A DNA stretch of 64,000 nt from the IMG/VR virus record IMGVR_UViG_3300028024_000007, positions 1,650-65,649 of that record. The stretch is one strand, 5' to 3'. The position numbers and the translations under genes are program-made. Every line of letters starts with the position of its first letter. Positions within the stretch are counted from its first letter, which is position 1. Below, in pieces: positions 9,289 through 28,067 of the stretch. Source of the DNA: a virus. The notes under the pieces were generated by a model, which had not been told where the DNA came from, searched no databases, and worked only from the letters and a program-made list of their open reading frames with translations.

Positions 9289-10086
9289 ATGCCATTCCGA
9301 GACGGCGACGAGGTGGTCATGTTCGAGGGGACCGTGAACATCGACCGGCGCTCCGCCGACAAGCAGGAGCGATCCGTGCTCTGCCGCCTGCCGGACGGGA
9401 CCGAGCGGTTCGTGTCGCGGAACCAGTGCCCGAGCTACCAGAGTTTCGGGGAGCTGGACGAGGTGATCGACCTGGAGGTCTCCGCCTGGCTGGTGGGGAA
9501 GTGGGAGGAGGAGGGCCCGCCGCCGCACGCGGTGGTCCCGGGCGTGGTGGTCCTCCGCTCGAGCGAGAAGGCCATCCAGGTCCGTCTGCCGGACGGCACT
9601 GTCGCGTGGGTCCCGCTCCGGGGGATCGACAAGGACAGCCCGGTCAGCGGCGACGGCCAGCGCGGTGACCTGTGGGTCGCCGAGTGGCTCGCCAAGGCGA
9701 AGGGCTGGGGCCAGGGCGCCCCAGCCGCCAGCTCCGGCGGGGAGCGGGCCCGCCCGCGCCAGGCCAACATCGGGGACGACGCGCGGAGCGGGTACCGCGG
9801 GGATGACCTCGAGAACCCGGACCCGCACGGCGACGCGGCGGCCAAGGATGACGAGCCGGACTTCGCGGCGGGGGACGATGACCTCCCTTTTGACGAAGCC
9901 CCCGGGGGAGTCCCCGGGGGCGGAACGAACGAAGGTCTGCTTCAAGTGCCATCGGCGCAAGCGTGTCGGCCTGTTCTATCGGCATCCGAAGATGGCAGAC
10001 GGCTACCTCGGCAAGTGCAAGGTGTGCGCGAAGCGCGATGTTCGTCTGGGATACCTGGAGAACGTCGAAGCGAAGCGTGCCTATGA
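9289..10086 (+). CDS. Tandem beta-barrel-like domains plus acidic DDDLPF motif; SSB-like candidate (frame runs about 65 codons past the motif)
   Basis: Two internal repeats (VLCRLPDGTERFV...DLEVSAWL and IQVRLPDGTVAWV...DLWVAEWL), then a Gly/acidic linker ending in GDDDLPF, the usual SSB C-terminal tip. Confidence 0.55.
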   Translation: MPFRDGDEVVMFEGTVNIDRRSADKQERSVLCRLPDGTERFVSRNQCPSYQSFGELDEVIDLEVSAWLVGKWEEEGPPPHAVVPGVVVLRSSEKAIQVRLPDGTVAWVPLRGIDKDSPVSGDGQRGDLWVAEWLAKAKGWGQGAPAASSGGERARPRQANIGDDARSGYRGDDLENPDPHGDAAAKDDEPDFAAGDDDLPFDEAPGGVPGGGTNEGLLQVPSAQACRPVLSASEDGRRLPRQVQGVREARCSSGIPGERRSEACL

Positions 10087-10351
10087 TCGGGAGAGATTCA
10101 AACGGCCGGCGCGTCGGCGGTGGTCAATCGAGGCAGCGAAGAAGCAACGCGGTCTGTATCCAGATCGCTATCGTGCAAGGACCGCGGTGGGGAACGCGAT
10201 TAGGGACGGAAGGCTCGTTCGCGGTCCGTGTGAGACGTGCGGCACGGTGGTCAAAGTTGAGGCGCATCACGAGGACTACTCGAAGCCGTTACTGGTGAGG
10301 TGGTTCTGCAGGACGCACCACAGGGAACACGAAGGAAGGCTGGTCACATGA
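9878..10351 (+). CDS. HNH-like zinc-binding endonuclease
   Basis: CFKC...CKVC, then CETCG...EAHHEDYSKPLLVRWFCRTHH; lower GC than the flanks. Confidence 0.75.
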   Translation: MTSLLTKPPGESPGAERTKVCFKCHRRKRVGLFYRHPKMADGYLGKCKVCAKRDVRLGYLENVEAKRAYDRERFKRPARRRWSIEAAKKQRGLYPDRYRARTAVGNAIRDGRLVRGPCETCGTVVKVEAHHEDYSKPLLVRWFCRTHHREHEGRLVT

Positions 10352-10674
10352 AGACGCTGAAGGTCGAGCAGATGGGGACGGAGGTCCAGGGCATCAGGCT
10401 CTTGGGCGAAAGATGCAATCCTGAACCGACGCACGTTCGGATCGTGTTCCCGGGCGGCGACGTGGACGTCGCGCGCTGCGACGACGGGAGCTACTGGGTC
10501 CACGTTCGGGTGGACAGCGCGAAGGACGCGGTCGAGAGCGACGGTGGTCGCCCGGCCGGCAGGCTGGTCGACGCGCGCCTCGACGTCCGCGGGAAGCACG
10601 CCAGCGAGTGCGACGCCGGCGACTTCGCCGATCCTGGCCTGTACCACCTGGCCGTCCGGGTGGCGCGCGCGTAG
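10348..10674 (+). CDS. Hypothetical protein
   Basis: ATGA coupling. Confidence 0.6.
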   Translation: MKTLKVEQMGTEVQGIRLLGERCNPEPTHVRIVFPGGDVDVARCDDGSYWVHVRVDSAKDAVESDGGRPAGRLVDARLDVRGKHASECDAGDFADPGLYHLAVRVARA

Positions 10675-10704
10675 CAGCTCGGCGCCGTGATACCGTCTCT
10701 TCCC

Positions 10705-11355
10705 ATGGCGAAGAGAGCGACCAAGGTGGCCGTGGCGAAGGTCCAGGAGGAGGTGCGGATCGAATACGTCCGCCTCCCGGACGTCAAACCGGCGAAGCGG
10801 AACCCGAAACTGCACGACGTCCCGACGATCGTCGCGTCGATCCGGAGGTGGGGCTTCAAGGCCCCCCCGGTCGAGGACGCCGCCACGGGGAGGATCGTGG
10901 CGGGGCACGGCCGCAAGGAAGCGGTCGAGTTCATCAAGTCGGACACGCCGGGAGAAGTCCCCAGGGGCGTGAAGGTCGGGGAGGACGGCGAGTGGATGAT
11001 CCCCGTCGTGCGCGGCGGGACGTTCGAGAACGAGGCGGAGGCCGAGCAGTACCTGCTGGCCGACAACCGGCTGGTGGAGCTCGCCGGGTGGGATGAGAAG
11101 GTCCTCGGGTCCATGCTCCAGGCGGTTGCCGACCACGGCGGGGACGCGCTCGCGGCCATCGGATGGTCCGCCGACCAGGTCGCCTCCATCGCCGCGGGCT
11201 GGGACAGCGACATCACCGCCATCAGGAGCCACGGGGAGAACACCGACGGCATCCTGGCGAAGATCGTCGTGTTCTGCCCCCAGGCTGTGAAGGAGAAGGT
11301 CTCGAAGGTGGTCGCGGCGGCCGTGAAGCGGTTCCCGAAGGTGAAGATCGTTTGA
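10705..11355 (+). CDS. ParB/sulfiredoxin N-terminal-domain protein heading the DNA-modification operon
   Basis: RNPKLH...IVASIRRWGF..P, IVAGHGR..A and YLLADNRL.ELAGWD motifs. Confidence 0.85.
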   Translation: MAKRATKVAVAKVQEEVRIEYVRLPDVKPAKRNPKLHDVPTIVASIRRWGFKAPPVEDAATGRIVAGHGRKEAVEFIKSDTPGEVPRGVKVGEDGEWMIPVVRGGTFENEAEAEQYLLADNRLVELAGWDEKVLGSMLQAVADHGGDALAAIGWSADQVASIAAGWDSDITAIRSHGENTDGILAKIVVFCPQAVKEKVSKVVAAAVKRFPKVKIV

Positions 11356-12203
11356 TCGCGCCGCGTTCCGAGTCAGAGCTGCTGAACGTCCTGGTCGCGT
11401 ACCCGTACATGTCCGATCGGGTGATCAAGATCCTGTCGGACGGCCAGGAGAAGATCCGGTTCCTCCTCGACTCCGGCGCGTTCACCGCGTGGAAGGCGAA
11501 GAAGAAGATCGAGGTCGACGACTACTGCAGGTTCATCGAATCGATGCCGTTTAAGCCGTGGCGCTACTTCACGCTCGACGTGGTTGGCGACCCGGCGGGG
11601 ACGATGCGGAACTACCTCACGATGGTGAAGCGGGGCTTCAAGCCCGTGCCGATCTTCACCCGCGGCGAGGACTTATCTGTGATCGACGACTACTACGAGA
11701 CGAGTGACGTGGTCGGGGTCGGCGGACTGGTGGGGACGCCGGGGAACAAGGGCTTCGTGAACGGGGTAATGAAGCGGGTGAAGAGTCGTCGCTGCCACTG
11801 GCTGGGCTTCACCTCGGTCGAGTTCCTCAAGCACTACCGGCCGTACATGTGTGACTCGTCGACGTGGGAGGTGGCTATGTACGGCGGCTTGGTCCTGTAC
11901 GACAGGGCCGGGATGTCGGTGAAGCTGAGCAAGGCGGACTTCGCGAAGAGGCCGACGAAGCGCGTGGTGGACCTGATCAGGTCTTACGGCGTCGACCCAG
12001 CGGTGTTCGCGCGAGACGCGAGCGGCTGGTCGACGGTCGGTTCGGGGAACCGCATGGTCAACGCGATGAGCGCGGTCAGGATGTCGCTCGACGTCCAGCG
12101 ATCTCTGGGTACGCTGCTGTTCATGGCCGCGTCGGCTGGCAACGGAGACGTGGCGAGGTTACTGCACGGTTATGATTTCGAAATGAAGAGGGGGACCACA
12201 TGA
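11352..12203 (+). CDS. dpdA: TGT-fold DNA transglycosylase candidate (DpdA-like; inserts 7-deazaguanine into DNA)
   Basis: FLLDSGAFT (TGT DSGG-like), TLDVVGD, PVPIF..GED, VGVGGLV, HWLG and DSSTW motifs; coupled to queC. Confidence 0.65.
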   Translation: MIAPRSESELLNVLVAYPYMSDRVIKILSDGQEKIRFLLDSGAFTAWKAKKKIEVDDYCRFIESMPFKPWRYFTLDVVGDPAGTMRNYLTMVKRGFKPVPIFTRGEDLSVIDDYYETSDVVGVGGLVGTPGNKGFVNGVMKRVKSRRCHWLGFTSVEFLKHYRPYMCDSSTWEVAMYGGLVLYDRAGMSVKLSKADFAKRPTKRVVDLIRSYGVDPAVFARDASGWSTVGSGNRMVNAMSAVRMSLDVQRSLGTLLFMAASAGNGDVARLLHGYDFEMKRGTT

Positions 12204-12874
12204 AGACTCTGATCATCCTGTCTGGAGGCGCCGACAGCGCCGTGCTCGCGCACCACCTGGTGGACGCTGGCCACGAGCTCGAGGCCGTGTCGTTCGACTA
12301 CGGCCAGCGCCACAAGCGCGAGCTGGTGGCTGCCGCGACGGTCGCGCGCGACCTGGGGGTACCGCACCGGGTGATCGACCTCCCGGGCCTGGGCGCGCTC
12401 CTGAGCGGCTCCGCGCTCACGGACCCGAGCGTCCCGGTCCCGCACGGTCACTACGAGGCGGAGACCATGCGGCAGACCGTGGTGCCGAACCGGAACACGA
12501 TCATGCTCTCGATCGCGTGGGGCATCGCGTGCTCGTCCGGGTGCGACGCGGTCGCGCTCGGCGTCCACGCCGGCGACCACTACATCTACCCGGACTGCCG
12601 CCCCGAGTACCTCCAGGCGCTCGAGCGCGCGCTCCTCCTGGGGACCGAGGGCCACCGCAAGGAGCAGATGGGGCTGATCGCCCCGTTCCGCGACATGACG
12701 AAGCAGCAGATCGTGGCTCGCGGGCTCGAGCTCGGGGTCAAGTTCGAGCACACCTGGACCTGCTACGAGGGCGGCGCGTTCGCGTGCGGCAAGTGCGGGT
12801 CGTGCCGCGAGCGCCTGGAGGCGTTCGAGAAGTCCGGCGCCGTCGATCCGGTCGCGTACGCACCGGCGGCCTGA
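12200..12874 (+). CDS. queC: 7-cyano-7-deazaguanine (preQ0) synthase
   Basis: SGGADS, FDYGQRH, VPNRN, YPDCRPEY and TWTCY...CGKCGSC motifs. Confidence 0.97.
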   Translation: MKTLIILSGGADSAVLAHHLVDAGHELEAVSFDYGQRHKRELVAAATVARDLGVPHRVIDLPGLGALLSGSALTDPSVPVPHGHYEAETMRQTVVPNRNTIMLSIAWGIACSSGCDAVALGVHAGDHYIYPDCRPEYLQALERALLLGTEGHRKEQMGLIAPFRDMTKQQIVARGLELGVKFEHTWTCYEGGAFACGKCGSCRERLEAFEKSGAVDPVAYAPAA

Positions 12875-12887
12875 TAACGTCGCTGAC

Positions 12888-13562
12888 GTGGCGACGTCCG
12901 ACGATATCAGGGGACGGCTTGAAGCCGCCGGCCTCCCGTACCTCTCCAACGACAACGTCAGCCGGGCCGTCCAGCCGGGTGACCTGACTAGGATCGAGGA
13001 GGAGGTCGCCGGTCACGTCCGCGGCCTCCTCCGCTCCCTGGTCATCGACGTCGACCGCGACCCGGGCTCGCAGAAGACGCCCGAGCGGGTGGCCAAGATG
13101 CTGGTACGCGAGGTCATGTGCGGCCGCTACGAGCCGGTGCCGGCGGTGACCAGCTTCGAGAACACCAGGGAGCTCGACGAGGTCTACGCGGTGGGCCCGG
13201 TCGACGTGCGGTCCATGTGCTCGCACCACCTGGTCCCGGTCGTGGGGCGCGCCTGGGTGGGTGTCCTGCCGGACAGGAAGCTCATCGGCCTCTCCAAGTT
13301 CTCCCGCCTGACGTCGTGGGTGATGGCCAGGCCGCAGATGCAGGAGGAGGCGACCATCCAGCTCGCCGACCTGCTGGAGGAGATGATCGAGCCGCGCGGC
13401 CTGGCGCTGGTCGTCCGCGCGAGCCACATGTGCATGACCTGGCGGGGGGTCCGCGACTCGTCCGCGGAGATGGTCACCAGCGTCATGCGCGGGGCCTTCC
13501 TGGAGAAGCCCGCCGCGCGGGCGGAGTTCCTGGCCCTGGCGCGGCCAACACGCTCGACATGA
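12888..13562 (+). CDS. folE: GTP cyclohydrolase I
   Basis: TPERVAKM, SMCSHHLVP, GLSK, RPQMQE and HMCM..RGV...TS.MRG.F motifs. Confidence 0.97.
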   Translation: MATSDDIRGRLEAAGLPYLSNDNVSRAVQPGDLTRIEEEVAGHVRGLLRSLVIDVDRDPGSQKTPERVAKMLVREVMCGRYEPVPAVTSFENTRELDEVYAVGPVDVRSMCSHHLVPVVGRAWVGVLPDRKLIGLSKFSRLTSWVMARPQMQEEATIQLADLLEEMIEPRGLALVVRASHMCMTWRGVRDSSAEMVTSVMRGAFLEKPAARAEFLALARPTRST

Positions 13563-13978
13563 AGATCGCCATCACGAGGTACCACGACTTCTCGGCCGGT
13601 CACCGGGTCGTCGGGCACGAGGGCAAGTGCCGCAACCTGCACGGCCACAACTACAGGGCCCACTTCGACGTGGTCTCCGACCGCCTCGACGCCGTCGGCA
13701 GGGTGGTCGACTTCTCGGTCGTGAGGGACCGCCTGTGCGCGTGGCTCGAGGAGAACTGGGACCACCGCATGGTCCTGTGGGATCAGGACCCCGACCTAGC
13801 GGTGATCCGCGCGGTCGACCCGACCGTCGCGGTCGTGGGGTTCAACCCCACGGCGGAGAACCTGGCTCAGCACCTGGTGTTCGTGGTCGGCCCGGCGCAG
13901 CTCGCCGGAACGGGGTGCAGCCTCCAGGGCGTGACGCTCGAGGAGACGCGCAAGTGCGCGGCGAGCGTGACGGCGTGA
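13559..13978 (+). CDS. queD: 6-carboxy-5,6,7,8-tetrahydropterin synthase
   Basis: FSAGHR...GKCRNLHGHNY, GRVVDF and PTAENLA motifs. Confidence 0.95.
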   Translation: MKIAITRYHDFSAGHRVVGHEGKCRNLHGHNYRAHFDVVSDRLDAVGRVVDFSVVRDRLCAWLEENWDHRMVLWDQDPDLAVIRAVDPTVAVVGFNPTAENLAQHLVFVVGPAQLAGTGCSLQGVTLEETRKCAASVTA

Positions 13979-14649
13979 CCTACCCGGTGAACGAGGTGTT
14001 CCTGACTGTCCAGGGCGAGGCCGCGAACGCGGGGCTGCCGGCGGTGTTCGTGCGCCTGCAGGGCTGCTCGGTCGGTTGTGCGTTCTGCGACACCAAGCAC
14101 ACGTGGGAGCTCTCCGACCAGAACTTCGTCCCGCTCGCCAGGATGCTGGGGAAGACGGAGGTGGCGACGCCGCAGTACGCGGAGGTCGGCACCGACGACC
14201 TGGTCCAGGAGGTGGTGCGCGCGGCGCGCGGCGCGCGCCTGGTCGTCCTGACAGGCGGTGAGCCCGCCGACTACGACCTGGAGCCGCTGGCTTTTGGTCT
14301 CGAGGCGCGCGGGCTCCGCGTCCAGGTCGAGACGTCGGGGACGACGCCGGTCATGGTGACCAAGGACGCGTGGGTGACGGTCAGCCCGAAGATCCTCCAG
14401 GCCGGCGGGCTCTCCGTCGTCCGGGAGGCGGTCGAGCGGGCGGACGAGATCAAGCACCCGACCGCGACCCAGCGCCACGTGGACGAGCTCCGGGAGCTGC
14501 TGGCGATGGGGTGGCACCGGCCGGGGATCCCCGTGTGGCTCCAGCCGCTGTCGCAGTCCCCCCAGGCCACCGCCCGGTGCGTCGAGTGGTGCCGCCAGTA
14601 CGGCTGGCGCTTGTCGGTCCAGACCCACAAGTACCTGGGGCTGCGGTGA
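13975..14649 (+). CDS. queE: 7-carboxy-7-deazaguanine synthase (radical SAM)
   Basis: EVFLTVQGE, FVRLQGCSVGCAFCDT, LTGGEP, ETSG, TVSPK and WRLSVQTHK motifs. Confidence 0.96.
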   Translation: MTYPVNEVFLTVQGEAANAGLPAVFVRLQGCSVGCAFCDTKHTWELSDQNFVPLARMLGKTEVATPQYAEVGTDDLVQEVVRAARGARLVVLTGGEPADYDLEPLAFGLEARGLRVQVETSGTTPVMVTKDAWVTVSPKILQAGGLSVVREAVERADEIKHPTATQRHVDELRELLAMGWHRPGIPVWLQPLSQSPQATARCVEWCRQYGWRLSVQTHKYLGLR

Positions 14650-15965
14650 CCGACTACCGCCCCCGCCTGCTCGGGCGCCTCCCCGGGTTCTCCGACCGCG
14701 CCCTCGACCAGCACCTGGCGCTCTACGAGGGCGCCGCGCGCGAGCTCCAGGCCGCGCGCTCCCAGCTGCGCCTGGTGTCGGCGGCCGTGCCGCCCGCCGC
14801 GCTCTCGCTGCCCGCCGGTGACCTCCAGCGCGTCCTCGACACGCCGATCGGCCAGCTCCAGCTGTCGCTCGAGGGCGGCCGCCTGGGCGACGCGCTCGCC
14901 CGGCTCCGCGCCGAGACCAGGTCCAAGGGGATCACCTGGTGGCCGAACTTCTACCTGGGCGGCGACGACTTCTGGACCACGGACCGCGCCACCAGCGTGA
15001 ACCTCCCCTGGTACCTGGGGAGCGAGGCCACCTGGCGCATGGTGAACGACCGGCGCCTGAAGCTCACGGAGGACGACGTCCTGCGGATCCTCCGCCACGA
15101 GTACGCCCACGCGCTGCTCTACGCCTACGAGGGGTGGGAGGCGCCCGGCTGGGAGGAGGCCTTCGGCCCGTTCGGCGCCCCCTACCAGGACGCCTACGAG
15201 CCCGACGCGGCGGCCGCGGAGGACTACGTGGTCCACCTGTCCCGCCCCGGGCCCGGCCAGCTGGCGCACTACCCCCAGAAGCACCCGGACGAGGACTGGG
15301 CGGAGACGTTCGCCGTGTGGCTGGCGGGCGTGCGGCCCGGCGAGTACGAGGAGGGCACCGGCGCCGCCCGCAAGCTGGAGGTGGTGGCCCGCCTGGTGGT
15401 GGACCGGGGCAGGTTCTACGGCGACCCGAAGGTGACGGCGCTCGGCCGCCGCGAGCCGTACCAGCAGCTGACGGAGACGGTCGGCGACTACCTGGGGGCG
15501 CGCGCCGCCTACTCGGAGCACAGCGCCATCCTGCGCCGCCTGCCCGACCTGCACGCCGCGGTGAGGCTGCACGAGCTGCACTTCGAGAACCTGGCCCCGC
15601 CTGCCGGCGGGTACCTCGGCCTGAACACGGCGCTCCTGGCGGCCGAGGCGTTCGGCTCGACCGACGCCTGGCTGGCGGACCTGCGCGCCGCCGCCGGCAG
15701 CACGTCCGGGTGGTCCCTGGCGGCGTGGGACCCGAGGGAGCGCCGGGTCATCACCGCCCTGGTGGAGGGCGAGTCGCGCGGCGTCCCGCCCGGCTGCCAG
15801 ATCCTCCTGGCGGTCGACTGCCACGAGCACGCCTACGAGCTCGACTACGGCGCCACGGGGAAGCACCTCGGCCTGGCGGCGCAGTTCAACTGCGTGGACT
15901 GGCTCGAGGTCGAGCGGCGCCTGATGGTCGCCGCCGGCATCCCGTCAGACCTGGCGCTGGCGTAG
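14646..15965 (+). CDS. Fe/Mn superoxide-dismutase-fold protein with an inserted zinc metallopeptidase domain
   Basis: SOD N part LPGFSDRALDQHLALYEG. Insert with LRHEYAH and YPQKHPDEDWAETFAVWL. SOD C part LHELHFENL, FGS..AW, GW, and LAVDCHEHAYELDYG...VDWLEVERR. Confidence 0.75.
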   Translation: MTDYRPRLLGRLPGFSDRALDQHLALYEGAARELQAARSQLRLVSAAVPPAALSLPAGDLQRVLDTPIGQLQLSLEGGRLGDALARLRAETRSKGITWWPNFYLGGDDFWTTDRATSVNLPWYLGSEATWRMVNDRRLKLTEDDVLRILRHEYAHALLYAYEGWEAPGWEEAFGPFGAPYQDAYEPDAAAAEDYVVHLSRPGPGQLAHYPQKHPDEDWAETFAVWLAGVRPGEYEEGTGAARKLEVVARLVVDRGRFYGDPKVTALGRREPYQQLTETVGDYLGARAAYSEHSAILRRLPDLHAAVRLHELHFENLAPPAGGYLGLNTALLAAEAFGSTDAWLADLRAAAGSTSGWSLAAWDPRERRVITALVEGESRGVPPGCQILLAVDCHEHAYELDYGATGKHLGLAAQFNCVDWLEVERRLMVAAGIPSDLALA

Positions 15966-16124
15966 CTCGACCGCGTCATAACTTGACGGATCCGCGCCTG
16001 CTCGGCCGGATAGCTTGCTCTGGTATGGACCGCCACCGCGTCGCCCCCCGGAGGTCGCCGCGCGCGGCAGCCCGGCGGGGACTCGGCGGGGCCGGCCAAC
16101 ATGTCTCCCAGGAGGACGGAGACG

Positions 16125-17300
16125 ATGAGCAGCCCAGAAGAGCGAGAGGTCGAGTATCGGGAGCGATTGTTCGCCGCGCAGAAGCAGCACGCCGAGGCGA
16201 TCTTGGTGGAGGCGAAGAGGCAGTCGGTCGCGCTCGAGTCGGTCGCGAACCTGCTGGCCGAGTACGCGGTGTACATGAAGTCGAAGGAGGCGCCGGAGGA
16301 GGTGGAGTTCATCGGTTCGGCGATCCTGGAAAGGGTCGAGAAGATGCGTAAGACGCCGCACCGGTTCACCCTCCTGGACGCGAGCGACACCAGCGTCATC
16401 AGGTGCCTCGTCTGCCACCTCCCGAAGGGGATCATCGCCCACGACTTCAATCGCGCCGGCGGCGTCGAGGTCAAGCTGACGAACGCTTCGGTGCAGGCGG
16501 GATCTCCGAAGTGCGTCGAGTGCGGCACGCCGGAGTACGTCGTGCCGGGATTGTCGATGGCATCGTCGACGTGGCTGTGTCGCAGGTGCGGGTGGGCGAG
16601 CGTAGACGGGCTGACGTGGTGCCAGCCGCCGAAGTCAGCGAATACGATTGTTGAGCAAGACCAAGACGTCGCGTCCGTCACGAATGACCTGACCGAGGCA
16701 CACGTCGGAATCTCCGGTGCGATCTTCGACCTCCAGCAGCAGCACCTATTGGTCCCCGAGCAATTGTCGAAGGCGCGGCGCCACATCGACCTGGCGATCG
16801 ACGTCATCAACGACAAGCTGGTCACCAGGGTCAAGGACGCGGAGAAGCGCGCGAGGGAGAACCAAGAAGACCGCTCGCAGGCGCTGCGCGTCCTCGACGA
16901 AGTCCGCGACAAGCGAGACGCGCTCGCCGCGAAGAACAATGCGTTGTTCGCGGACTACGAGGCCCTGCTGGTCATCCATGCGCAGCTCACGCGGTCCGCC
17001 AAAGACCACGACGCCCGCGTCGAGCAGCTCCTGGCGTCCGAGAGCGCGGCGCTCGAGAAGGTCGCCGCCGCGGAGCAGCGCGTCCGTCACGCGAGCGCGA
17101 CGTGCGAGCGCGCCATCGCCGACGCGCTCCACCTTGCCAGGGAGCGCGAGGGCGCCGTCATCAAGGAGCGCGCTCGCGTGACTGACGCGGTCGTCGCAGA
17201 ATACGAGCGGATGAGGAACGCGGGCCGGATGTTCCAGTTCGACGTGGCGGACATCCGCATGGCGGCCGCGCCGGACTACGTCCCGGTGAAGGCGCTCTGA
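16125..17300 (+). CDS. Hypothetical protein with CxxC pairs and a long coiled coil
   Basis: CLVC, CVEC and CRRC pairs; helical C-terminal half; RBS AGGAGG. Confidence 0.65.
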   Translation: MSSPEEREVEYRERLFAAQKQHAEAILVEAKRQSVALESVANLLAEYAVYMKSKEAPEEVEFIGSAILERVEKMRKTPHRFTLLDASDTSVIRCLVCHLPKGIIAHDFNRAGGVEVKLTNASVQAGSPKCVECGTPEYVVPGLSMASSTWLCRRCGWASVDGLTWCQPPKSANTIVEQDQDVASVTNDLTEAHVGISGAIFDLQQQHLLVPEQLSKARRHIDLAIDVINDKLVTRVKDAEKRARENQEDRSQALRVLDEVRDKRDALAAKNNALFADYEALLVIHAQLTRSAKDHDARVEQLLASESAALEKVAAAEQRVRHASATCERAIADALHLAREREGAVIKERARVTDAVVAEYERMRNAGRMFQFDVADIRMAAAPDYVPVKAL

Positions 17301-17428
17301 TGCTCCGCGCGGCCACCCTCGTCGTGGTGATACTGGTGCTCGCCTGCCAGGTGGTGGACATCTGGTTCACCGTGACGTCGGTGCGTCGCCTGGAGGCCCG
17401 CGTGGCGGCCGTCGAGGCGTGCGAGTGA
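17300..17428 (+). CDS. Small membrane protein (42 aa), not in the ORF track
   Basis: MLRAATLVVVILVLACQVVDIWF...; TGATG overlap upstream and GTGA overlap downstream. Confidence 0.55.
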   Translation: MLRAATLVVVILVLACQVVDIWFTVTSVRRLEARVAAVEACE

Positions 17429-17796
17429 GGCCCCTGGTCGTCCTCCTGCTCCTGTCCGCCTGCGGTGTGGATGCCATGCCGTTCGGCGGGGCGACCGGCG
17501 CCACCCCGGGGAAGCTCTCCCGCGGGGCGGCCGGGGCCGCGGGGGGCGAGGAGGGCGGCCGCGCCGGTACCGCGCCGGTGTCCAGCGGAGGCGCCCCGGG
17601 TGGGTCTGCGGGTACCGGAGCAGGTCCCGGGGGATCCGTGGGGGCGCCTCCACTGGGTACCGGCGGATCGGTCGGTTCGACGGGTGGGACGCCGGGGGCG
17701 AGCGGATCCGGAGGCTCCGTACCGCCAGGTACGGGCGGCGACCAGGGTGTCTGCTACGACACGAACGGCAACCTCGGCACCTGCCCGCGCCCCTGA
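17425..17796 (+). CDS. Gly/Ser/Thr-rich lipoprotein
   Basis: Lipobox LLLLSAC; GTGGS-type low-complexity region; C-terminal Cys pair. Confidence 0.7.
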   Translation: MRPLVVLLLLSACGVDAMPFGGATGATPGKLSRGAAGAAGGEEGGRAGTAPVSSGGAPGGSAGTGAGPGGSVGAPPLGTGGSVGSTGGTPGASGSGGSVPPGTGGDQGVCYDTNGNLGTCPRP

Positions 17797-17880
17797 GGGG
17801 CGCGCAGGAGCCCGCCGGTACGTCCGGACGCCCGGGACGAGAACGCCCCGTACGGCGCGAACCGGTGAGCCAGGCGCCCC

Positions 17881-17909
17881 TTGCCGTATCGGCCGCCGTA
17901 CCCCAAGGT
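17881..17909 (+). promoter_or_regulatory. Putative leaderless promoter
   Basis: TTGCCG-N17-CAAGGT, with ATG 7 nt later at 17917. Confidence 0.5.
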
Positions 17910-17916
17910 GGGGGCC

Positions 17917-18072
17917 ATGATCATCCTCATCCCCCTCCTGGCCTGCATCGTCGGCGTCCTGGTCTACGCCCTGGCCTCGAACCCCAAGGTCCAGGAGATG
18001 GGGCGCCTGGCGTTCGGCGCCGGCCTCCTGGTGACGCTCTGGGAGGTCGCCGGGCACGTCCTGCGGCTGTAG
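17917..18072 (+). CDS. Small two-TM membrane protein
   Basis: Two hydrophobic segments in 51 aa. Confidence 0.6.
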   Translation: MIILIPLLACIVGVLVYALASNPKVQEMGRLAFGAGLLVTLWEVAGHVLRL

Positions 18073-18085
18073 TACCCTCGGGGGC

Positions 18086-18868
18086 ATGAGGGCCGTCCCC
18101 AAGCTCCAGCTGCCCGAGCTCCCCCGGTGGGAGGAGAAGTTCCCGCTCGAGGTTCTCCAGGCGAAGGCCAGCGGTCGCGAGGTGGGCGGCTCGGCCATGT
18201 GGCTCCAGGGGTTCCGGATGCAGGTGGTGAAGCCAGGGGACCTGAAGTTCCCCAGCTTCCCGTCCTGCCTGTCCCCCGGCCTGGTCCTGTCCGAGGTGTG
18301 GCGCCGCGCGCTGCCGACCTACGTGGGGGTCGACCTCTCCAGCGCCAGCCGCCCCGGCAACTTCATCGTGGCGGTGGCGGTCGACACGGCGAACGGAATC
18401 CGGATCCCCGTGGAGGCCAGGGCCGGCGCCTGGAGCTCCCCGGAGACGGCCGAGGTCCTGACGGACGTCTGCTCCCACCACCCGAACCTCCAGTACGTGA
18501 TGGTCGAGAACAACGCCTACCAGGAGGCGATCATCGACTGGGTCAAGAAGGGCAAGTCGGCCTTCCCCTGGTGGAACAAGGTCGAGGCCCACACGACCGG
18601 GCGGAACAAGGCCGACCCCGCGTTCGGCCTCCCCGGGCTCGAGGTGGAGTTCGCGAACCACAGCTGGGCGTTCCCGAGCGGCGAGTGGGAGGGGCACGAG
18701 ACGGGGCACGACTGCGCCTGGTGCGTGCTCTCCCGCGAGTTCCGGCTCTACCCGAAGTACAGCACCTCCGACGGCATCATGGCGACGTGGTTCTGCAAGG
18801 CGGCCATCGACCGCTGGTGGCGCCCCGGCTCCTCCCGCAGTGCGAAGCGCGACCACAACGTGCGATAG
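18086..18868 (+). CDS. terL: Terminase large subunit, C-terminal lid plus RNase H-like nuclease domain as a separate gene
   Basis: PRWEEKFPLEVL...MWLQGF (LWPE-type lid), YVGVDLS, VMVENNAYQEAI, GRNKAD and YPKYSTSDGIMA (FPxxxHDDxxDA-like). Has its own -10-like TACCCT 7 nt before the ATG. Confidence 0.8.
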   Translation: MRAVPKLQLPELPRWEEKFPLEVLQAKASGREVGGSAMWLQGFRMQVVKPGDLKFPSFPSCLSPGLVLSEVWRRALPTYVGVDLSSASRPGNFIVAVAVDTANGIRIPVEARAGAWSSPETAEVLTDVCSHHPNLQYVMVENNAYQEAIIDWVKKGKSAFPWWNKVEAHTTGRNKADPAFGLPGLEVEFANHSWAFPSGEWEGHETGHDCAWCVLSREFRLYPKYSTSDGIMATWFCKAAIDRWWRPGSSRSAKRDHNVR

Positions 18869-21332: not shown

Positions 21333-23141
21333 ATGTCGTTCCTCCCGTCCGGCGCCCCGGTCCTGGCCCCATTCGTCATGAAGCCGGAGGAGGCGGTGGC
21401 CTTCCTCGAGCAGAACGCGCTCCCGCCCTACACGTCCGACGAGCGGTACCTCCAGCTCGACCGGTACGAGGCCCACTGGCGCGGCTGCCAGTACGACCAC
21501 CAGAGCGTCGACTGGTGGGGCATGAACGCCGACGACTACGAGACCGTCAGCCCGCGCGTGGCCGTCCCCCAGGGGTTCGTGCAGCCGGCCCAGCTGGTCC
21601 TGAACACCCGGCAGAAGCGCCCGAGCATCGAGACGGGCGCCTGCGCCACGGTGGTCGAGGGCTACACGGACCTGATGATGTCCGAGCAGGCGGCGCCCCG
21701 GACCATCGTGGAGGGTGATCCGGACACGGAGGCGATGCTCCTGGCGCTCCAGGAGAAGATGCACTGGCTCCCGAAGTGGACCCACGCCCGCGACCTGGGC
21801 GGCGCGGTGGGCTCGGTCCTGGTGACGGTGGCGGCGCGCGCCGGCCAGATGGACATGGAGGTCCACAACACGAAGTGCGTGGTCCCCCTGTGGCGGAACC
21901 GGCGCCAGCTGAAGCCGGCCGCCGTCCTGATCTTCAAGGTCGTCGTGGTCCAGGAGGACGAGCTCGACGACAAGGACCGGAAGACCGGGAACAAGACCCC
22001 CGTGGAGTACGTCCACCGGCGGATCATCTCGGAGGCCGAGGACGTGGTCTACCGCCCCATAAAGGCGTCCGACCCGAACACGTGGGACTGGGTCCGGGTG
22101 GAGGCGCTCTGCTCCCGCCACGACCTTGGGGTGTTCCCCGGGGTGTGGATCCAGAACACCGCGGCCGACGACGACAAGGACGGCCTGGCCGACTGCGAGG
22201 GCGCCTGGAAGACGGTCGACGCGCTCGACCGCCTGCTCTCCCAGGTGAACAAGGGCGAGCTCGCCACGGTCGACCCCAGCCTGGTCATCAGCGACGACCC
22301 GAAGATGAAGGAGGCCGGACCGGTCAGCCGCAGCAGCGACAACACCGTCGAGCTGTCCGAGAAGGGCACCGCCAAGTTCCTCGAGGTCACGGGCACCGGC
22401 CTGGCGTCCGCGATGTCGTTCGCCGAGCAGCTGGAGCGGTGGATCTCCCGGCGCACCGGCTACGTGTTCGCCGAGCCGGACAAGGTCGCCGGCGCGGCGG
22501 CCAGCTCCCTGGCTATCCGCCTGATGTTCAGGCCCATGATCCAGCGCGCCGACAAGAAGCGCGGCCAGTACGGGCCTGCCATGGTCGAGCTGCTGAAGGT
22601 CGTGGAGAAGATCGTCCGCGGGTTCGCGGCCCAGCGGATCCCCCTGCCGCCGGCGGAGGACGGGCGGGAGCGAGTGGGCGTGCCGACGCTCGAGCTCGAC
22701 CCGCGCCGCATGCCGGACGGGACCATGCAGGCCCACCGGCTTGGGAAGGGCGGCGTGATCCAGGTGAAGTGGGGCCCGTACTTCAACAAGGGCCCGGCCG
22801 AGGAGGGCGTCGACATCACGAACGCGGTGGCGGCTAAGAACGGCGGGCTCATCGACCGGCGGACCGCCGCGTCCCACGTGGCCGAGTCCGTGTTCCAGGT
22901 CCGCGACCTCGACGCCATGCTGGCGAAGGTCGAGACCGAGCAGGCCTCCGAGGTGGACGCCATGATGGCGGCCGCGGGCGGCGGGGTGACCGGCGTGGCC
23001 CTGGCGGACCTCCAGCGGTCGAGCTCGGCGGCGGGTGGTCAGAACGGCGCGGGGAAGACCCCGCTGCTCGGGAAGGACCACGCCGACCTGCGCAAGGAGG
23101 CCATGGGGAGCCAGGGCGCGGGCGACTCTGAGGTCAGCTAG
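21333..23141 (+). CDS. Portal protein (SPP1-like)
   Basis: 602 aa; sits between terminase and the gpF-like gene; mainly helical portal-like organisation (e.g. ASSLAIRLMFRPMIQRADKKR..YG). Confidence 0.75.
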   Translation: MSFLPSGAPVLAPFVMKPEEAVAFLEQNALPPYTSDERYLQLDRYEAHWRGCQYDHQSVDWWGMNADDYETVSPRVAVPQGFVQPAQLVLNTRQKRPSIETGACATVVEGYTDLMMSEQAAPRTIVEGDPDTEAMLLALQEKMHWLPKWTHARDLGGAVGSVLVTVAARAGQMDMEVHNTKCVVPLWRNRRQLKPAAVLIFKVVVVQEDELDDKDRKTGNKTPVEYVHRRIISEAEDVVYRPIKASDPNTWDWVRVEALCSRHDLGVFPGVWIQNTAADDDKDGLADCEGAWKTVDALDRLLSQVNKGELATVDPSLVISDDPKMKEAGPVSRSSDNTVELSEKGTAKFLEVTGTGLASAMSFAEQLERWISRRTGYVFAEPDKVAGAAASSLAIRLMFRPMIQRADKKRGQYGPAMVELLKVVEKIVRGFAAQRIPLPPAEDGRERVGVPTLELDPRRMPDGTMQAHRLGKGGVIQVKWGPYFNKGPAEEGVDITNAVAAKNGGLIDRRTAASHVAESVFQVRDLDAMLAKVETEQASEVDAMMAAAGGGVTGVALADLQRSSSAAGGQNGAGKTPLLGKDHADLRKEAMGSQGAGDSEVS

Positions 23142-26839: not shown

Positions 26840-27142
26840 ATGAGTATGAAGATTCTCAGGAACGTTGTCGGTGACGCGGTGGCGAGCGCACTGGGGGAGG
26901 TGACGAGCATCGTCTGCCGTCTCATCCGCGGTGACGCGGTTGCGCGAGCGTGTGAGAAGTCAGACCTGTCGATGCGCGAGCGCTGCGATCTCAACGTTCA
27001 CCTGCAGTGCAAGGCGAAGCGCGTGAGCGGCGGTGACGAGTACTTCTGCCCGCGCGACGCGGGTCACGAGGAGTACGCGATCTCGCACCACTGGATGCTG
27101 GACGAGGCCCTCGCGCACCGGAAGCGCAGCGCCGCGGGCTGA
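26840..27142 (+). CDS. Hypothetical Cys/His-containing protein
   Basis: RBS GAGGAGG; C...HLQC...YFC....H motif. Confidence 0.55.
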   Translation: MSMKILRNVVGDAVASALGEVTSIVCRLIRGDAVARACEKSDLSMRERCDLNVHLQCKAKRVSGGDEYFCPRDAGHEEYAISHHWMLDEALAHRKRSAAG

Positions 27143-27146
27143 GCAC

Positions 27147-28067
27147 GTGGCCGTCTCCGCCATCCGCCGGATCATCGACCTGCACCGGCGCCAGCTGTTC
27201 GGCCTGGTGGAGATCCGCGGCGTGGAGCGCCTGCGCCCCTCGTACGACCATGCCCGGGTGGAGCTCGAGCGGAAGCTGAAGCACCTGGTGCGCGGCGGGA
27301 AGGGCCAGACGTTCCAGGCCCACCACGTCCGCCAGGTGCTGGCCCAGGTGGTGGGCGCCGTGCACGAGGTACAGAAGGGGATCGTGACCCGGCTCGAGGA
27401 CACGGGGCGGGTGGCGGCCGACCTGGCCCCGCGCCACCTCATCTCGGCCATCGAGCAGCTCCAGGAGCACTTCAAGGGGGCGACCCCGGTGCTCCAGCCG
27501 CGCCAGGCGGCGGTGTTCCAGCGCGCCTACGAGGGCCGCGCGCCGTCGCTCCTCGACCACTACGAGAGCTCGTCCCGGCTCTACGGCCCGCCCGTGATCG
27601 CGAAGGTCCGGGACCAGCTGACGCTCTCCGTGCTCCAGGGAGAGGGCGTGGACGAGGCGGTCGACCGGGTGGCCGGGGCGACCGGCCTGGTGGCCGACCA
27701 GCGCTGGCGGGCGGAGCGGATCGTCAGGACGGAAAGTTCGTTCAGTTACGGGGTGGCGACGCAGATTGGAATGGACGAGCTATCGAAGCAGACCCCGCAG
27801 ATGCTGAAGCGCTTGGTGGCGACACTCGACGATCGAACCGGCGAGGACTCCAAGGAACTGAACGGCCAGACGGTGCCAGTCGACCAGCCGTTCGTGTGGG
27901 TCGTGAAGGACTCGAAGGGAAGTCCGACCGGGAAGGTGGTCAGGTACATGCAGCCTCCCGGGAGACCCAACGACAGAGAGCTTAGTATCCCGTGGTTTTC
28001 GAACTGGCCAGCCTCGGTTTCTCTCGATCACTCTGGGCCGGTTGAGCCGACGACTCGCGGACTATAG
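27147..28067 (+). CDS. Minor head / head morphogenesis protein (Mu gpF / SPP1 gp7-like)
   Basis: RAERIVRTE, VATLDDRT, LNGQTVPVDQPF and PPGRPNDR motifs; downstream of the portal. Confidence 0.85.
   Translation: MAVSAIRRIIDLHRRQLFGLVEIRGVERLRPSYDHARVELERKLKHLVRGGKGQTFQAHHVRQVLAQVVGAVHEVQKGIVTRLEDTGRVAADLAPRHLISAIEQLQEHFKGATPVLQPRQAAVFQRAYEGRAPSLLDHYESSSRLYGPPVIAKVRDQLTLSVLQGEGVDEAVDRVAGATGLVADQRWRAERIVRTESSFSYGVATQIGMDELSKQTPQMLKRLVATLDDRTGEDSKELNGQTVPVDQPFVWVVKDSKGSPTGKVVRYMQPPGRPNDRELSIPWFSNWPASVSLDHSGPVEPTTRGL

Follow-up and report, generated by a model that had tools for sequence, protein, structure and literature searches.

What does a phage gain from a superoxide dismutase (SOD) fold that carries a peptidase in its middle, encoded directly behind a set of deazaguanine genes? 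The question is raised by the gene at positions 14646 to 15965 of a 64,000-nucleotide stretch of viral DNA (hereafter the window), which spans positions 1,650 to 65,649 of IMG/VR record IMGVR_UViG_3300028024_000007 and is a portion of a 92.8-kb virus record rated complete. The original prediction, made from this DNA, held that the product (here P0001) is an SOD with a zinc metallopeptidase nested inside and that it is coupled to the deazaguanine operon. The gene and the parts of its product are as follows.

14646..15965, + strand: SOD-peptidase gene; 439-residue product (P0001), an SOD fold with a nested zincin peptidase, whose N-terminus agrees with its homologues
14646..14649, + strand: GTGA overlap, in which the GTG start (14646-14648) shares bases with the queE TGA (14647-14649)
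14646..14780, + strand: SOD helix alpha-1 (residues 1-45), with ligand His23 (codon 14712-14714); helix 17-43 in the model
14781..15515, + strand: inserted zincin peptidase domain (residues ~46-290)
15096..15110, + strand: HEYAH zinc-binding/catalytic motif (residues 151-155)
15267..15311, + strand: HYPQKHPDEDWAETF block (residues 208-222), which contains the candidate third zinc ligand, Glu216 or Glu220
15516..15962, + strand: SOD helix alpha-2 and C-terminal alpha/beta domain (residues 291-439); helix 2 is 291-314 in the model
15570-15572, 15816-15818 and 15828-15830, + strand: codons of SOD ligands His309, Asp391 and His395, placed by HMMER alignment to M. tuberculosis Fe-SOD (1gn4/1ids)

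Sequence comparison and a predicted structure together confirm that P0001 is a true domain insertion, in which residues 1-45 and ~291-432 are predicted to form a complete Fe/Mn-SOD fold. An AlphaFold2 model built from 39 homologues has a mean predicted local distance difference test (pLDDT) score of 91.7, and exhaustive structural comparison aligns it with the Fe-SOD of Aquifex pyrophilus (1coj_A; Z 24.1, root-mean-square deviation (rmsd) 2.1, 193 of 211 residues) from model position 1 to 432. Because this alignment spans the whole model, helix 1 (17-43), helix 2 (291-314) and the C-terminal domain would together make up a normal SOD. Foldseek likewise matches the model to many SODs (E 5e-9), and its residues ~55-265 match zincin peptidases. 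Among profile searches, Pfam Sod_Fe_C matches residues 333-425 (E 2.5e-10) and NCBIfam SOD models span 292-425 (E 2e-16); Sod_Fe_N (PF00081) gives no match to P0001 at E values up to 1, the hairpin that it describes being divided by ~245 residues.

Undivided relatives lead to the same view of the architecture. By BLAST, the stand-alone SOD-like protein P0272 matches P0001 in two segments, at residues 8-48 (E 3e-5) and 302-426 (E 3e-20), which are separated by 17 residues in P0272 and by 253 in P0001. The stand-alone phage peptidase P0051 is 45% identical to P0001 over residues 45-283, which is the whole insert. The two-segment match and the full-length alignment with 1coj_A bear out an internal insertion rather than an end-to-end fusion, and the model, proposed in the original prediction as a check of domain topology, gives the SOD fold with a zincin inside. 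The motifs on which that prediction drew all lie where it had placed them in the translation (DQHLALY at 21-27, LHELHFENL at 308-316, DCHEHAY at 391-397 and DYG at 400-402), the four metal-ligand positions (H, H, D, H) are retained in P0001, and the GTGA overlap with the queE stop is present. Its estimate of about 220 residues for the nested peptidase has to be enlarged to ~245-250.

The insert has the marks of an intact zinc peptidase. Pfam Peptidase_Mx (PF15887) matches residues 136-226 of P0001 (E 4e-4) at 20.3 bits, below the Pfam cut-off of 27, which is exceeded by the relatives L016 (28.6 bits), P0051 (29.3) and P0102 (34.4). In the alignment of 39 sequences on which site conservation was counted, H151, E152, H155, Y159, H208, Y209, H213, D215, E216 and E220 are invariant (39/39), so that the HExxH motif with a downstream Glu, as originally predicted, is conserved in every member. 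Q211 and K212 of the HYPQKHPDEDWAETF block are likewise invariant, and the block is also kept in stand-alone relatives; the overlapping string QKHPDEDWAETFAVW occupies residues 211-225. Judged by this conservation, Glu216 and Glu220 are the candidates for the third zinc ligand.

Folded alone, the insert is modelled with a pLDDT of 90.7 and a predicted template modelling (pTM) score of 0.89. Its structural matches include anthrax lethal factor (1yqy, Z 8.8), PPEP-3 (9g0j, Z 8.4), the lethal factor-like domain of Certhrax (Z 7.7), PPEP-2 (Z 7.5) and the Peptidase_Mx structure 4l7a (Z 7.1), and nearly all the remaining matches listed are zinc metalloproteases or related metallohydrolases. The resemblance of the model to M34-like enzymes suggests a site-specific endopeptidase and does not establish family membership. 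A SprT/ArdC-like DNA-protein-crosslink or anti-restriction protease was also considered as the nearest kind and was set aside, since Pfam gives only E 0.11 and the structural scores (Z 4.3-4.7) fall far under those of the M34-like matches. Literature searches on Peptidase_Mx returned a single paper naming the family, which is unrelated, and no characterised member or known substrate.

The metal site of the SOD part is less uniform. The ligand quartet reads HHDH in 31 of the 39 sequences and HHCH in five; taken singly, His23 is retained in 37/39, His309 in 37/39, Asp391 in 32/39 (Cys in 5) and His395 in 36/39, and none of the four ligands is left in P0024 and P0026, in which the peptidase residues persist. 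His309, Asp391 and His395 align with the ligands of M. tuberculosis SOD, with 1gn4 as the top HMMER sequence match, and His23 was placed through the helix-1 match; the C-terminal part is 29-31% identical to solved SodFM enzymes. Around these ligands, the HxxxHH motif of helix 1 is reduced to HxxxY (HLALYE in P0001). The Tyr34 position, 8 after His23, is Ala in P0001 and Tyr in 0/39, a register taken from an ungapped motif comparison in which a one-residue shift is possible, the adjacent position being Tyr in only 6/39. Aligned with the water-coordinating His145 of the M. tuberculosis enzyme is Glu376 of P0001, the only Glu among the 39; the others include His (15), Gly (9), Asp (5) and Asn (5). 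The M. tuberculosis H145E mutant (1gn4) reportedly still binds metal.

Because this outer sphere of the dismutase is not conserved, a canonical superoxide-scavenging role is doubtful. In SodFM enzymes the four ligands are universal and the water-coordinating Gln or His is a key residue of the catalytic centre; SodFM3/4 enzymes are tetramers that use a C-terminal His at this position (PMC10172142). In sequence, the phage family looks like a SodFM3/4-type fold that has kept metal binding and in which dismutase chemistry is no longer constrained.

One could nevertheless suppose that the protein is simply bifunctional, an active Fe- or Mn-SOD that clears superoxide generally during infection, joined to an independent protease for co-expression or co-localisation. 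The high retention of the quartet (31/39, plus the five with Cys for Asp), an essentially undistorted fold (rmsd 2.1 over 193 residues) and the 15 of 39 members with His at the water position, which fits the SodFM3/4 type (PMC10172142), are all points that such an enzyme would account for. The residues that define SodFM catalysis, including the key one named in the same paper, are nevertheless not conserved, and HxxxHH is worn down to HxxxY. The stand-alone proteins closest to the family are likewise divergent and uncharacterised and lack a Sod_Fe_N match, and nesting would be an odd route to mere co-expression. We therefore regard this explanation as improbable, while it stands first among the alternatives.

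Longer members of the family point in a different direction. Many relatives have 560-1054 residues, and what they have in common is the SOD-peptidase unit at the N-terminus; P0001 is the short form, in which the unit carries no extra domains. A PI3/PI4-kinase-like or HipA-like domain lies at the C-terminus of P0133 (39.4 bits), P0135, P0141 and the 836-residue protein of L017, and a DRAT-like ADP-ribosyltransferase domain at that of P0136, P0137, P0139 and P0128, with scores of 25-35 bits that reach or exceed the cut-off. For P0125, P0131 and P0127, the extension has no match in Pfam. Two of the long genes, L017:9974-12484 and L016:9977-12463, have 828-836 codons, and it is the L017 copy that has the kinase-like/HipA-like C-terminal region.

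Other relatives carry Cys-rich C-terminal modules of the CxxC...C...CC-x-x-W type, of about 130 residues in P0012, P0024, P0029 and P0037 and shorter in P0007, P0008 and P0010. These modules may bind metal or iron-sulfur clusters. An HiPIP-like iron-sulfur module was suspected from the spacing of the Cys residues and could not be supported, and Pfam gave no match to the extensions of P0012, P0024, P0037 and P0010.

P0001 is also predicted to self-associate. The homodimer prediction scored 0.72 against 0.00 for the best control, a value reached by 20 of 30 proteins whose solved structure is a pair of one and the same chain and by 1 of 23 whose structure is a single chain; these counts apply only approximately, since our own alignment was used. 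All of the confident contacts fall in the SOD part (residues 41-45, 289-311 and 336-389) and none in the peptidase, a prediction that supports, and does not show, a scaffold role.

The explanation that we favour, with a probability of roughly one in two, is that a self-associating SOD-like scaffold and a specific zincin together form a host-directed phage effector module. P0001 would be a phage-specific protein with two metal centres. Its divergent Fe/Mn-SOD-like fold would serve mainly as a self-associating scaffold, probably still binding metal, and the zincin endopeptidase, catalytically intact by conservation, would sit in the loop of the N-terminal helical hairpin and project from its tip. 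The unit would act on host proteins in host takeover or counter-defence, and would be a reusable N-terminal module to which related phages add kinase-like, ADP-ribosyltransferase-like and Cys-rich domains. The preQ0/DpdA cassette would have been set directly upstream of it in the phage of the window and one close relative, the tandem translation with queE being a local arrangement. Nesting, conservation, distribution, synteny and the accretion of domains are observed; proteolysis, self-association, host targets and a loss of efficient dismutase chemistry we infer. The original prediction had offered either a bifunctional or redox-gated guard of the modification pathway or a peptidase that uses the SOD as a scaffold or sensor, and it is the second of these that fits best.

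Several observations weigh against an effector module of this kind. None of the canonical bridging residues (Glu394, His395 and Tyr397) is among the predicted dimer contacts listed, and the interface may therefore be another contact of the SodFM3/4 tetramer, or wrong. The pTM score of the whole protein is only 0.69, which bears on the orientation of the domains to one another. Protease activity and host targets are argued from conservation and from the domains fused to relatives rather than from P0001. With its ligands kept in ~92% of members, the SOD site clearly has some importance, and dismutase or redox chemistry is possible. The viral loci compared below form one phage clade, since all share terminase and portal homologues, and in a single clade of related myophages synteny may come from common descent rather than function. 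Finally, among 50,697 phage records neither a megablast search with positions 12000-17000 nor a tblastn search with P0001 found anything; no cultured phage there carries the gene, and the family is known from sequence alone.

The kept ligands could also be given a regulatory meaning. The SOD-like metal centre might sense redox state or metal and gate the nested protease allosterically, which would make the protein a natural domain-insertion switch. Such a sensor would explain why ligands are kept while the outer sphere of the dismutase drifts, and the effector would then be active only upon a change in superoxide, iron or manganese, for example in an oxidative abortive-infection response. We consider gating of this sort unlikely.

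The neighbourhood of the gene bears on two further explanations. The window has a G+C content of ~70%, its recognisable genes all lie on the + strand, and its gene set includes myovirus-type sheath, major head, portal and tape-measure genes. The following are relevant here.

10687..14649, + strand: upstream operon, with ParB-like, DpdA-like, QueC, FolE, QueD and QueE genes
10687-11355, + strand: ParB-like gene of this operon
ends at 12203, + strand: DpdA-like transglycosylase gene, after the ParB-like gene
12200-12874, + strand: QueC gene of this operon
12888-13562, + strand: FolE gene
about 13571-13978, + strand: QueD gene (PTPS match, E 3.5e-25, mapped to 13571-13972), in its own frame between FolE and QueE
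about 13970-14649, + strand: QueE gene, the last before the SOD-peptidase gene
18086..18868, + strand: terminase nuclease-half gene, a 260-residue open reading frame (ORF) that matches only positions 488-683 of the 760 of phrog_38 (C-terminal part of large terminase)
21333..23141, + strand: portal gene (phrog_64), which belongs to the conserved neighbourhood

The preQ0 pathway (FolE, QueD, QueE and QueC) and DpdA are thus complete in the window. A long ORF at 13627-14649 is in a frame other than that of QueD, and because QueD occupies this different frame, the true start of QueE is placed near 13970. A scan of positions 10000-18200 for transcription signals gave neither a promoter-like site nor a terminator on the + strand, an absence that is consistent with one transcription unit without being evidence for one. 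Directly downstream of the SOD-peptidase gene, the ORF at 16101-17300 (399 residues) is coding-like, with a G+C content at third codon positions (GC3) of 0.89; neither Pfam nor PHROG matches it, and the 30 related viral loci, the closest relative included, contain no homologue. It was considered as a detached extension of the long forms, an idea that blastp did not bear out. Positions 27033-28067 encode a minor head protein of the MuF/SPP1 gp7-like kind, with matches to several PHROG families for head morphogenesis (E 1e-9 to 6e-11).

To assess synteny, the proteins of the window were compared by tblastn with 30 viral loci, 18 of which have the nested gene when the phage of the window is counted. 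In the other 17 full-length loci (L002-L018), a gene for the terminase nuclease half lies ~0.1-8 kb downstream, mostly less than 3 kb, and ParB-like and portal genes then follow wherever the stored DNA reaches that far. Stand-alone phage peptidases (L019-L029) lie directly after terminase and portal genes. Across all the related loci the nuclease half, at 18086-18868 in the window, is kept as a separate gene.

This order might indicate a virion-associated protein, either one that is packaged in the capsid and leaves it together with the DNA, as T4 Alt and the MuF-fusion toxins do, or one active as a head-morphogenesis protease. The position of the nested gene upstream of terminase-nuclease, ParB and portal genes in L002-L018, the place of the stand-alone peptidases just downstream of terminase and portal in L019-L029, and the ADP-ribosyltransferase and kinase fusions, which resemble known injected phage effectors, would all agree with this. 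The synteny of the nested gene is confined to one phage clade, however, and in the phage of the window its translational coupling is to a metabolic operon, structural genes having no part in it. No PHROG family matches P0001, those for head and packaging included, and prohead proteases are not known to be zincins, those described being serine or herpesvirus-like enzymes. A virion role therefore seems about as unlikely as sensor gating.

Upstream, the loci differ. Que genes adjoin the nested gene in 2 of the 18, the phage of the window and L002, its closest relative (61% identity), which has DpdA, QueC, FolE and QueE beside the gene and a 4-nt ATGA overlap with queE. The other 16 (L003-L018) have no Que gene within 10 kb of the nested gene, and QueC and QueE are found nowhere in five relatives rated 86-100% complete; the DpdA profile (phrog_887) matched nothing in the relatives and nothing in control genomes either, and is thus uninformative. 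Elsewhere the upstream genes include an MT-A70 methyltransferase (L005:8166-8705), an Fe(II)/2-oxoglutarate (2OG)-dependent Tet/JBP dioxygenase (L006:8329-9150), Dam (L017:6229-6945), SSB (L015) and a papain-like protease (L013). This variety implies that the upstream slot often carries DNA-modification cargo and not specifically iron-sulfur enzymes, which suggests a variable cargo site.

It is against this background that the purpose originally assigned to the protein has to be judged, namely that a working SOD, possibly redox-gating the protease, guards the oxygen-labile 4Fe-4S radical-SAM enzyme QueE and with it the deazaguanine DNA-modification pathway. The 4-nt start/stop overlap with queE in both the window and L002 is what such a guard would lead one to expect, as are the four ligands kept in P0001, the preQ0 pathway and DpdA directly upstream, and, in L006, another iron enzyme in the form of the Fe(II)/2OG Tet/JBP oxygenase. 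Co-occurrence is nonetheless absent from 16 of 18 loci and QueC and QueE from the five near-complete relatives, so the architecture is largely unlinked to the modification genes, an outcome that the original prediction had itself named as telling against it. MT-A70, Dam, SSB or papain-like protease genes stand upstream in other loci, no member has Tyr at the Tyr34 position, the water-coordinating position holds Glu in P0001 and often Gly in relatives, and two members without any ligand keep the peptidase. A guard would also leave the invariant protease and the kinase and ADP-ribosyltransferase fusions unexplained. The function of the family is not defined by its deazaguanine link, which is local, and we hold protection of QueE to be a long shot. 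Co-translation with QueE in the lineage of the window is a fact, and some local benefit there is conceivable.

The distribution of the family is strictly viral or metagenomic. At 90% identity, 44 clusters cover at least 80% of P0001, collinearly and at 37-62% identity, and at 50% identity a profile search among 1.84 billion representatives recovered 27-29 clusters with the whole architecture; all clusters with the nested architecture are viral or metagenomic, and all 57 members of the ESM Atlas cluster are viral. A chimeric assembly, which the original prediction had listed as a possible undoing, or a mis-called frame that joins unrelated genes can be discarded, since the same collinear architecture recurs in these 44 (90%) and 27-29 (50%) clusters from dozens of independent metagenomes, the frame-specific GC3 of 14646-15965 is 0.88, model confidence is high and nothing was found in its favour.

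A scan of 185,579 prokaryotic species, one genome each, gave no full-length copy and only peptidase-only relatives, the furthest of which reach query residue 334; a bacterial or prophage origin of the nested form was rejected on this result. In the peptidase-domain tree, the sequences that are not nested lie on one side of a single well-supported branch (96/82). The one nominally stand-alone sequence that groups with the nested ones, P0052, is encoded on a contig of 1.5 kb and has probably been cut short. The tree is consistent with a single insertion event.

The nearest relatives of the SOD part are stand-alone SOD-like proteins of ~240 residues (P0264-P0277) from metagenome-assembled genomes (MAGs) of Deltaproteobacteria and Nitrospirae. 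They have a twin-arginine-like leader (DRRxFLxGLAG) and match Sod_Fe_C only, with no Sod_Fe_N, and look like a divergent, uncharacterised and apparently exported SOD-like branch. Peptidase-only copies in L032-L036, on contigs assigned to Myxococcota, Polyangia and a 'Deltaproteobacteria' MAG, are nearly identical to viral stand-alone copies and interleaved with them in the tree. These copies may be phage or prophage DNA, and they alone provide a hint that Myxococcota are hosts of the wider phage group.

Fe/Mn SODs are among the best-studied metalloenzymes. Our literature searches for this architecture returned nothing relevant, and no description of an Fe/Mn SOD with a second enzyme nested in its hairpin was found in them. 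The perfectly kept protease site, the mostly kept metal site and the kinase-like and ADP-ribosyltransferase-like additions are the reasons for viewing the SOD-peptidase family, which occurs only in uncultured phages, as a probable and so far uncharacterised class of phage effector modules. The family would also be relevant to protein engineering by domain insertion, as a natural case in which a rigid, oligomeric enzyme fold has been put to a second use as scaffold or switch. For studies of phage DNA modification the locus carries a caution, in that a gene may lie beside queE and be translationally coupled to it in one lineage without its product belonging to the deazaguanine system.

Compared with known systems, the effector module that we favour has parallels in function and in fold. 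Proteases, kinases and ADP-ribosyltransferases are classic phage activities for modifying host proteins. The family resembles T4 Alt/ModA/ModB, the T7 Gp0.7 kinase and the MuF-fusion toxins in the ADP-ribosyltransferase-like and kinase-like domains of its long members and in the location of the gene near packaging genes; it differs from them in having no sequence homology to them, and P0001 is a short form. The peptidase shares with Peptidase_Mx (PF15887) the HExxH motif and the HYxQKHPDEDWAE block, and with 4l7a the same fold (Z 7.1, 170 residues aligned), whereas the stand-alone phage Peptidase_Mx copies (P0046-P0058) have their own C-terminal region of ~110 residues and no SOD parts. The catalytic domain of anthrax lethal factor and the Pro-Pro endopeptidases, MEROPS M34-like zincins, are the best structural matches of the insert and share HExxH and the downstream Glu, but at an identity of only 11-17% and with Z scores at the margin of significance.

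For the SOD part, P0264-P0277 are the nearest sequence relatives of both segments (37-41% identity), and the GFS...HLAL motif of helix 1 and the AVRLHEL(Y/H)F motif of helix 2 occur in both groups; unlike P0001, those proteins are bacterial, with a contiguous hairpin and an export signal. The tetrameric SodFM3/SodFM4 enzymes (1coj, 1ids/1gn4, Pyrobaculum 1p7g and Aeropyrum 3ak2) share the entire two-domain fold, the three His and one Asp ligands, the long N-terminal helices and, with 15 of the 39 phage relatives, a His-type water-coordinating residue. The phage-encoded proteins depart from them in a hairpin broken by ~245 residues, an undetectable Sod_Fe_N, the absence of Tyr34, the HxxxY motif, the Glu at the water position of P0001 and the ligand-free members. 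Strong structural matches (Z 17.6-19.7) also link the model to the mitoribosomal proteins mS42/mS43 and the plastid RNA-polymerase proteins PAP4/PAP9. These are eukaryotic organellar proteins with no nested enzyme, whereas the phage family mostly retains its ligands; by analogy, they would be precedents for an Fe/Mn-SOD fold reused as a structural module.

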